Shown here one piece after another: positions 50,958 through 51,055 of a stretch of 64,000 nt of DNA (position 1 is its first letter; the number at the start of each line of letters is the position of its first letter). The position numbers and the translations under genes were made by a program. The notes beneath the pieces are model-generated. The model did not search any database. It worked only from the letters and a program-made list of their open reading frames with translations, and was not told the origin of the DNA. This stretch comes from a virus, in IMG/VR virus record IMGVR_UViG_3300029319_000003, positions 96,001-160,000 of that record; one strand, written 5' to 3'.

Positions 50958-51055
50958 TGGCTGGAGGGGGAGGATTCGAACCTCCAAGGTGCGCTTTCAC
51001 GAACTCACCACCGTCGAGACAGGACGGCGCGTCTGCCAAATTTCGCCACCCCCCA
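50958..51055 (-). tRNA. Non-canonical tRNA with GUC (Asp) anticodon and 25-nt variable arm
   Basis: 98 nt, 7/5 fold; D-arm GCG AAATTTGGCAGA CGC; anticodon arm CCGTC CTGTCTC GACGG; V region TGGTGAGTTCGTGAAAGCGCACCTT; G73, CCA. Confidence 0.85.

Follow-up and report, generated by a model that had tools for sequence, protein, structure and literature searches.

The window analysed here, 64,000 nucleotides (nt) of the IMG/VR virus record IMGVR_UViG_3300029319_000003 (positions 96,001 to 160,000), carries a gene for a tRNA-like RNA that combines the aspartate anticodon GUC with a long-armed, leucine-type class II body. We found relatives of this RNA in more than 100 Bacteroidota chromosomal loci and more than 100 viral contigs, and the window gene is very probably a functional member of a conserved family of class-II-shaped RNAs with Asp or Asn anticodons. 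As to function, we tentatively favour a role in asparagine supply, in which the RNA would be aspartylated and the amidotransferase GatCAB would then amidate the bound aspartate by way of the U1-A72 pair. In full-text literature searches we met neither a tRNA-Asp or tRNA-Asn of class II nor a tRNA-like RNA linked to AsnC, and no Rfam family was found; the nearest described objects are the allo-tRNAs, but their folds differ.

ARAGORN called the gene as a 98-nt tRNA-Asp(gtc) at 50958-51055 on the minus strand. Its parts are as follows, in window positions.

50958..51055, minus strand: whole long-armed Asp-type tRNA-like RNA, 95 nt plus encoded CCA (ARAGORN, sequence, family alignment and consensus fold)
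51049..51055, minus strand: acceptor 5' strand UGGGGGG, U1 with A72 and G2 with C71 (sequence)
51029..51046, minus strand: D arm, 3-base-pair stem GCG/CGC and Leu-type 12-nt loop AAAUUUGGCAGA (sequence; D-loop core invariant in the family)
51011..51027, minus strand: anticodon arm CCGUC-CUGUCUC-GACGG (ARAGORN, anticodon at position 36 of the gene)
51018-51020, minus strand: anticodon GUC, within the anticodon arm, with U37 at 51017 and C38 at 51016
50986..51010, minus strand: 25-nt variable arm, a hairpin (fold; basal helix covaries)
50969..50985, minus strand: T arm GGAGG-UUCGAAU-CCUCC (sequence and family consensus)
50958..50968, minus strand: acceptor 3' strand CCCUCCA, G73 (50961) and encoded CCA (50958-50960) (sequence)

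The two acceptor strands form 7 base pairs, G4-U69 among them, and are followed by U8 and G9. G26 lies between the D arm and the anticodon arm, A15 and U48 are placed for a Levitt pair, and the variable hairpin consists of a basal helix GGUG/CACC, an A.G mismatch, 3 further pairs and the loop CGUGAA. An earlier sequence-only reading of this DNA had reported the 3-base-pair D stem, the Leu-like loop, the A15:U48 pair and the 25-nt arm closed by GGTG/CACC, together with the AspRS determinants G34-U35-C36, C38 and G73 and the unusual U37, and each of these is present in the sequence. It had also assigned the RNA a normal 7/5 fold, not the 8/4 or 9/3 branches of allo-tRNAs, and we agree, as 7/5 fits and an 8/4 arrangement would require U8 to pair with C. 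All the AspRS marks of E. coli are present, G10 included (GUC, C38, G73, G2-C71). Two features absent from that reader's list are G2-C71 and U1-A72, and the latter is the determinant for bacterial GatCAB (PMC1635274) and points to asparagine. No Rfam family reached its gathering score with the window RNA, the top model being tRNA-Sec (RF01852) at 22.7 bits (E 0.34, threshold 47), and the energy of its single-sequence fold did not stand out from that of shuffled sequences (z -0.32). A second anticodon-like loop in the variable arm, such as that in the neighbouring tRNA-Ile, was considered and rejected, since the arm sequences vary freely across the family and some end in tetraloops.

Further long-armed GUC genes came from a first viral scan, whose pattern combined the D loop and CUGUC with a T loop beyond a long spacer. 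When the anticodon was left open, viral matches with a clean in-register anticodon stem almost always carried GUC, GUU or AUC. When the 5' half of the RNA (with U37 fixed in the pattern) was sought across prokaryotes, each species being represented by one genome, at least 120 loci were obtained, nearly all on Bacteroidota chromosomes, from Pedobacter, Saprospiraceae, Cytophagaceae, Cyclobacteriaceae, Chitinophagaceae, Aquirufa, Marinoscillum and Persicobacter. Among the 145 genome-scan matches listed, 139 parsed cleanly with U1-A72, G2-C71, G73 and the loop YUGUCUC, and 2 further matches were non-family. The core of the window RNA shares 75-90% identity with the bacterial members (median 80%), and its loop CUGUCUC is their consensus loop, in a sample whose pattern fixed U37. 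Across 69 unique members, U1-A72 was found in 67, G2-C71 in 64 and G73 in 68. The D arm follows a Leu-type pattern of U8, G9, a 3-base-pair stem and the loop RAAUUGGYAGA, to which the window loop adds one U, and position 37 was U, C or G, never A, in 75 Sphingobacteriales matches. The traits shared by predicted members are U1-A72, G73, a Leu-type D arm, a loop YUGUY, a position 37 that is mostly not A, and a long variable arm.

The variable regions of the genome-scan members listed span 38-117 nt, mostly 72-96 nt, with the exception of one small-type member (L193, 25 nt). The large domain has the motifs GGNGA, GGAUAAAC and GCUAAC, and the 25 nt of the window RNA do not qualify; its arm retains the basal helix and GA, and the distal domain is absent. 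Arms of 15-54 nt occur in other phage members. At both ends, over its first 10 and its last 7 nt, the window arm matches the 74-nt variable domain of an Aquirufa-type member (L136) without a difference, so that the phage copy looks like a cut-down version. RNAalifold applied to a MAFFT alignment of 24 members returned the same cloverleaf and variable-arm base, with compensatory double changes in 21 of 24 pairs, affecting every stem, and covariation of all five anticodon-stem pairs; judged by this alignment, the family fold is under selection. In a syntenic relative phage (contig L110, 195 kb) the gene is 86% identical and has a GUU anticodon (loop CUGUUUC), with proteins just 50-70% identical. 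The unrelated L193 contig (64% G+C) carries the same core with another anticodon stem, another variable hairpin and the loop UUGUCUC.

Some chromosomes carry several copies. Persicobacter diffluens has five in tandem at 172-nt spacing, and in many Pedobacter genomes (for example L151, L166, L177, L180 and L183) two copies stand in tandem, the first short-armed (variable region ~40 nt, acceptor UGUAGGG) and the second long-armed (~73 nt, UGUUGGG), with a U.U mismatch in the anticodon stems.

Most of the chromosomal members lie next to a putative asparagine regulator. Clustering of neighbours at the 114 chromosomal loci listed gave one dominant partner, a 158-amino-acid protein found at 86 of them and encoded divergently ~155 nt upstream of the RNA; several of the other loci end on the regulator's side. 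These 86 loci span Pedobacter, Aquirufa, Chitinophaga, Cyclobacteriaceae, Cytophagaceae and a Chitinophagales metagenome-assembled genome. The protein has Pfam AsnC ligand-binding and AsnC-type helix-turn-helix domains and scores 180 bits against the NCBIfam AsnC equivalog (cut-off 227), the next model scoring 72 bits. In E. coli, asnC faces asnA, and we liken the divergent arrangement of the AsnC-like gene and the RNA to this pair.

We then counted the relevant genes in an even sample of 61 Sphingobacteriales genomes. AsnA was present in 5 and GatB in 52, and the RNA was found in 48 by pattern and in 3 more by covariance model R1, giving 51. The RNA occurred together with GatB in 51 genomes and without it in none, GatB occurred without the RNA in 1, and 9 had neither; all five AsnA genomes lacked both the RNA and GatB (Fisher P 6e-10 for GatB and 4e-5 for AsnA, not corrected for ancestry). 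Five RNA-bearing genomes from five families were likewise all GatB-positive and without AsnA, and AsnB-family matches were weak in Pedobacter and Aquirufa and moderate, at 64 bits, in Persicobacter. Because AsnRS and GlnRS were both present in 10 of 10 genomes tested, GatCAB is not needed there for ordinary charging. The combination of AsnRS, GlnRS and GatCAB with no asparagine synthetase has been described for some Bacteroidetes genera (Alperstein et al. 2014, PMC4206432), and bacterial GatCAB selects its substrate by U1-A72, position 36 being irrelevant (Bailly et al. 2006, PMC1635274).

Several related expectations were not borne out. That the RNA occupies the place of asnA was not confirmed in Sphingobacteriales, where AsnA lies elsewhere. 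The AsnC-like orthologue of the AsnA genomes, which lack the RNA, is 72-76% identical and faces a conserved 347-amino-acid protein (L255:2280-3323, plus strand; orthologues in L256-L259) that matched no Pfam or NCBIfam family. This protein is not an alternative to the RNA, since it is also present, elsewhere, in 4 of 5 RNA-bearing genomes. The idea that host tRNA-Asn lacks U1-A72 was rejected, the tRNA-Asn of Chitinophaga and Marinoscillum having both U1-A72 and G73, and so was an equivalence of the RNA and GatB across the phylum, GatB being much more widespread.

The viral members fall into two types. A second viral scan left positions 36 and 37 unfixed, and at least 68 unique complete phage members, 18 with GUC and 50 with GUU, are among the matches listed, to which all counts for phage members and loci given below also refer. 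The two types compare as follows.

Position 2: G2-C71 in 18/18 GUC members; C2 in 29, U2 in 7 and G2 in 14 of 50 GUU members
Position 37: U37 in 14/18 GUC and 42/50 GUU members
Position 38: C38 in 15/18 GUC members; A38 in 35/50 GUU members
Variable region: 15-92 nt in GUC members; mostly 26-31 nt in GUU members
Encoded CCA: 1/18 GUC members; 42/50 GUU members

The anticodon is associated with position 2 (Fisher P 4e-8) and with position 38 (P 7e-6) across the 68 members. G2-C71 and C38 are Asp identity marks, and C2-G71 and A38 are Asn marks. Since the anticodon tracks positions 2-71 and 38 in the Asp/Asn direction, this suggests that phage members are selected by the anticodon-reading enzymes AspRS and AsnRS. 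The contigs also differ in their translation signals, a Shine-Dalgarno core preceding a median of 2% of open reading frame (ORF) starts in GUC contigs and 40% in GUU contigs (Mann-Whitney P 5e-6), and the GUC contigs resemble the Bacteroidota chromosomal loci (0-14%). The window phage is atypical in that it has GUC with G2 and C38, yet has an encoded CCA and a Shine-Dalgarno core before 57% of its ORF starts (background 7%). Because of this difference from the Bacteroidota loci, its host is probably not a member of the Bacteroidota. Its genome contains 51 TTGAC-N15-19-TAnnnT sites and shows only a weak enrichment of the Bacteroidota -7 motif TAnnTTTG.

At 44 of 69 phage loci the RNA is the sole tRNA-like gene. 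Two contigs (L011 and L072) have a normal tRNA-Asp alongside it, and a normal tRNA-Asn accompanies it in the window phage and in a complete syntenic relative (G313), which carries the long-armed GUU copy and no tRNA-Asp. That Asp/Asn switching fills gaps in the phage tRNA set was considered and rejected, because in G313 the long-armed GUU copy occurs alongside a normal tRNA-Asn. The GUU version (L063, L113, L128, L314, L339, L388 and others), with the loop CUGUUUA and an encoded CCA, is commoner than GUC in the viral contigs listed, where it occurs in AT-rich (33-38% G+C), Shine-Dalgarno-using contigs, usually as the lone tRNA-like gene; none of the bacterial genomes sampled showed it.

In the asparagine-supply reading that we tentatively favour, host AspRS would charge the RNA with aspartate, GatCAB would turn the RNA-bound aspartate into asparagine owing to U1-A72, and the RNA would act as the carrier in tRNA-dependent asparagine supply. 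The non-A37 would keep the RNA from competing for GAY codons, and the cut-down copy of the phage, beside its own tRNA-Asn, would maintain asparagine during infection. The GUC members carry recognition marks for both enzymes, namely those of E. coli AspRS and the U1-A72 pair that bacterial GatCAB requires, and we are fairly confident that AspRS, not SerRS or LeuRS, would charge the window RNA. A wider proposal, which we consider possible but doubtful, is that the whole family is a dedicated non-decoding cofactor for making asparagine, loaded with aspartate by a discriminating AspRS through the GUC loop and amidated by GatCAB through U1-A72, with cut-down copies captured by phages and converted to a GUU version in phages of Shine-Dalgarno hosts; under this proposal the phage copies would be auxiliary metabolic RNA genes.

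If asparagine supply is the function, an RNA gene would be doing the job of an amino-acid biosynthesis enzyme gene. A tRNA look-alike for building asparagine, non-decoding and apparently controlled by an asparagine regulator, would constitute a new tRNA-dependent metabolism, and it would explain why many Bacteroidota retain GatCAB despite having both AsnRS and GlnRS. The phage copies, often the sole tRNA-like gene, would then be an auxiliary metabolic gene that is an RNA.

Several observations weigh against asparagine supply by this route. GatB reads the D loop and has a tail near the variable loop (PMC2811023), and extra D-loop bases (20A/20B) are rejected by GatB (PMC1635274, PMC2811023); the window D loop, at 12 nt on a 3-base-pair stem, is larger than that of tRNA-Asp. 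The enlarged D loop and variable arm could be a barrier to GatB, or could be a co-evolved contact. Host tRNA-Asn has U1-A72 too, so GatCAB could just serve tRNA-Asn. GatB was found in 12 of 15 pattern-negative genomes across the phylum, with R1 finding the RNA in only 1 of these, and because GatB-positive genomes without the RNA are common across the phylum, GatCAB does not depend on it. Shared ancestry is left uncorrected in the co-occurrence counts, and the AsnC-like gene in AsnA genomes faces the unrelated 347-amino-acid protein, not asnA. The Bacteroidota context transfers to the window phage only indirectly, because its host is probably not one of the Bacteroidota, and plain decoding is possible because the variable arm is ribosome-compatible and the RNA is the only Asp-anticodon tRNA of the phage. 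We know of no route by which asparagine would be released from a GUC-bearing carrier.

Plain decoding, the main rival, would make the window RNA the phage's ordinary tRNA-Asp, reading GAU and GAC, with the Leu-like body either an accident or a means of independence from host tRNA-Asp. It is the only Asp-anticodon tRNA of six and lies inside a tRNA cluster, it has the 7/5 fold, an encoded CCA and all the E. coli AspRS marks, its 25-nt arm is no longer than the arms of the Leu, Ser and Tyr tRNAs that the ribosome accepts, and Asp makes up 6.8% of phage residues. The family at large fits this poorly, and we consider it a possible but rather unlikely explanation: a pyrimidine at position 37, poor for decoding, is the norm (the U37 counts given above), A37 never occurred in the 75 Sphingobacteriales matches, and U1-A72 is no tRNA-Asp feature. 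Moreover, L011 and L072 retain a normal tRNA-Asp, G313 combines the GUU version with a normal tRNA-Asn and has no tRNA-Asp, and the RNA stands alone at most phage loci. A role in counter-defence, as a nuclease-proof substitute for tRNA-Asp or tRNA-Asn or as a decoy, with the body and U37 removing nuclease recognition, seems improbable to us. Some phage tRNAs have been described as escaping tRNA-cutting defences by means of altered anticodon loops, and colicin E5-type enzymes cut tRNAs with GUN anticodons; U33-G34-U35 is retained in nearly all members, position 37 and the body are unlike those of normal tRNAs, and phage copies are often solitary genes. The sequence-only reading had suggested both nuclease escape and a decoy, and for the phage copy either may hold, but this leaves unexplained the chromosomal relatives with their AsnC-like neighbour, GatB co-occurrence and exclusion of AsnA, as well as the conserved U1-A72, and no nuclease targeting tRNA-Asp or tRNA-Asn was identified in this analysis.

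The same reading had raised a Ser-charged mistranslating tRNA. In this explanation the RNA would be charged either by SerRS, which would recognise G73 and the long arm, or by LeuRS, which would recognise the Leu-type body, and it would place Ser or Leu at Asp codons. G73 with a long variable arm is indeed a SerRS signature (PMC7609411), and the window RNA has both; allo-tRNAs with non-Ser anticodons exist, GUC being a predominant one, and those with Leu anticodons put Ser at Leu codons in E. coli (PMC5389517). The co-variation of the anticodon with positions 2-71 and 38 according to Asp/Asn identity speaks for a different enzyme. SerRS and LeuRS ignore the anticodon, and charging with Ser or Leu is disfavoured because an enzyme that does so would not select such co-variation. 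The Leu-type D arm is combined with G73 where LeuRS needs A73, the 7/5 fold and 3-base-pair D stem are not those of an allo-tRNA, and the family body carries almost only GUC, GUU and AUC, with no spread of anticodons. Taken together, mistranslation appears very improbable. Least likely, to the point that we discount it almost entirely, is a tRNA-Leu pseudogene in decay or a misassembled anticodon, in spite of the Rfam tRNA model scoring below threshold and the unremarkable fold energy. The sequence-only reading had looked to conservation in related phages as a check and had named anticodon error and rapid decay as its possible undoing. The gene is conserved, and sequencing error and decay are practically excluded, because hundreds of independent contigs and genomes carry this loop and body, their stems showing compensatory changes, and because 86% identity is kept in the syntenic phage.

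Whatever its function, the family suggests that a class II body whose residue 37 is a pyrimidine can bear Asp/Asn identity. Its members are missed by current tRNA finders or labelled plain tRNA-Asp or tRNA-Asn, and this affects annotation and inferences about phage codon adaptation and genetic-code change.

Among known systems, the bacterial tRNA-Asn that serves as scaffold for tRNA-dependent Asn synthesis, with a non-discriminating AspRS and GatCAB (PMC1635274, PMC4206432), appears analogous, sharing U1-A72, G73 and a probable aspartylation. The bacterial relatives occur only in GatB genomes among those tested, Pedobacter and Aquirufa have no AsnA and weak AsnB-family matches, and the chromosomal copies are apparently under AsnC-like control. 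The window RNA differs from that scaffold in its body, which is of class II with a large Leu-type D loop and a long variable arm, in having a pyrimidine as residue 37, and in bearing GUC where the scaffold has GUU. With GUC, the RNA could be a substrate for a discriminating AspRS, and the product would be unusable at Asn codons.

Allo-tRNAs, among whose predominant anticodons are GUC and UAU (Mukai et al. 2017, PMC5389517), likewise have a long variable arm and an anticodon mismatched to the body, and the window phage carries long-armed tRNAs with both of these anticodons. Allo-tRNAs have 8/4 or 9/3 branches, a long D stem with a tetraloop, and Ser identity, whereas the window RNA has a 7/5 fold, a 3-base-pair D stem and Asp-type marks. 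With canonical tRNA-Asp(GUC), a class I tRNA with the loop CUGUCAC, it shares the anticodon, C38, G73, G2-C71, G10 and the 7/5 fold; it differs in U1-A72 (not G1-C72), U37 (not A37), the 3-base-pair Leu-type D arm and a variable arm of 25 nt as opposed to 4-5 nt. It is like bacterial tRNA-Leu in its D arm, which is close to that of the neighbouring phage tRNA-Leu (loop AAAUUUGGCAGA versus GAAUUGGUAGA), in A15-U48 and in the long arm, and unlike it in G73 (not A73), U1-A72, the Asp anticodon loop and a longer variable helix. Certain staphylococcal tRNA-Gly species serve cell-wall synthesis outside translation. By analogy, the long-armed RNA would be a paralogue kept next to an ordinary decoding tRNA; the usual synthetase would charge it, and it would be kept away from the ribosome. 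The amino acid and the pathway differ, and the tRNA-Gly keeps a class I shape.

The window gene belongs to a cluster of seven RNA genes called by ARAGORN, all on the minus strand: tRNA-Thr(UGU), Leu(CAA), Arg(UCU), Asn(GUU), Asp(GUC) and Ile(UAU) and a transfer-messenger RNA (tmRNA). These six tRNAs and one tmRNA are the full set of the 184,187-base-pair virus record (45.7% G+C), and the window RNA is the sole Asp-anticodon tRNA in this genome. No AsnC-like regulator is present at the phage locus, and genes for a class IIb synthetase, GatB or AsnB are absent from the phage. A sigma-70-like site at 51085-51058, directly upstream of the window RNA, is unlikely to serve it because it ends 3 nt short of the mature 5' end. 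BLAST searches of cultured phages, with the window RNA and with a GUU member as queries, yielded no useful match, and no close cultured relative matched the 3-kb RNA cluster or the PIN-PhoH protein listed below. Cyanophage tRNA-Asp genes matched in the cluster search were set aside as ordinary 74-nt tRNAs. Features around the window RNA are as follows.

47505-48857, minus strand: gene for a PIN-PhoH fusion protein, near the RNA cluster
49836-50255, minus strand: gene for a cytidylyltransferase-like protein, between tRNA-Thr and tRNA-Leu
50874..50948, minus strand: ordinary tRNA-Asn(GUU), 9 nt downstream of the window RNA (ARAGORN; 65.9 bits against the Rfam tRNA model)
51081-51641, plus strand: weak J-domain ORF (25 bits, sub-threshold), between tRNA-Ile and the long-armed RNA
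51642-51736, minus strand: second long-armed tRNA, Ile(UAU), 95 nt (62.3 bits against the Rfam tRNA model)
52012-52346, minus strand: phage tmRNA (132 bits against RF00023), tag peptide ANNNTHFDAVALAA
52390-52362: strong sigma-70-like promoter (11/12 matches), near the tmRNA

The variable arm of the tRNA-Ile(UAU) is a hairpin whose loop, CUGAUAA, is of the Ile(GAU) anticodon type. The viral scans also returned ~89 unique matches (L016, L020, L036, L041, L053, L061, L082, L126 and others) in which a Leu-like acceptor, D arm and T arm are conserved, many with AGUCAGG...CCUGACU and A73. Their 60-80-nt middle is highly variable and has no in-register anticodon stem, and most are not called by ARAGORN; they seem to form a family of their own, in which a tRNA-Leu frame holds a variable insert.

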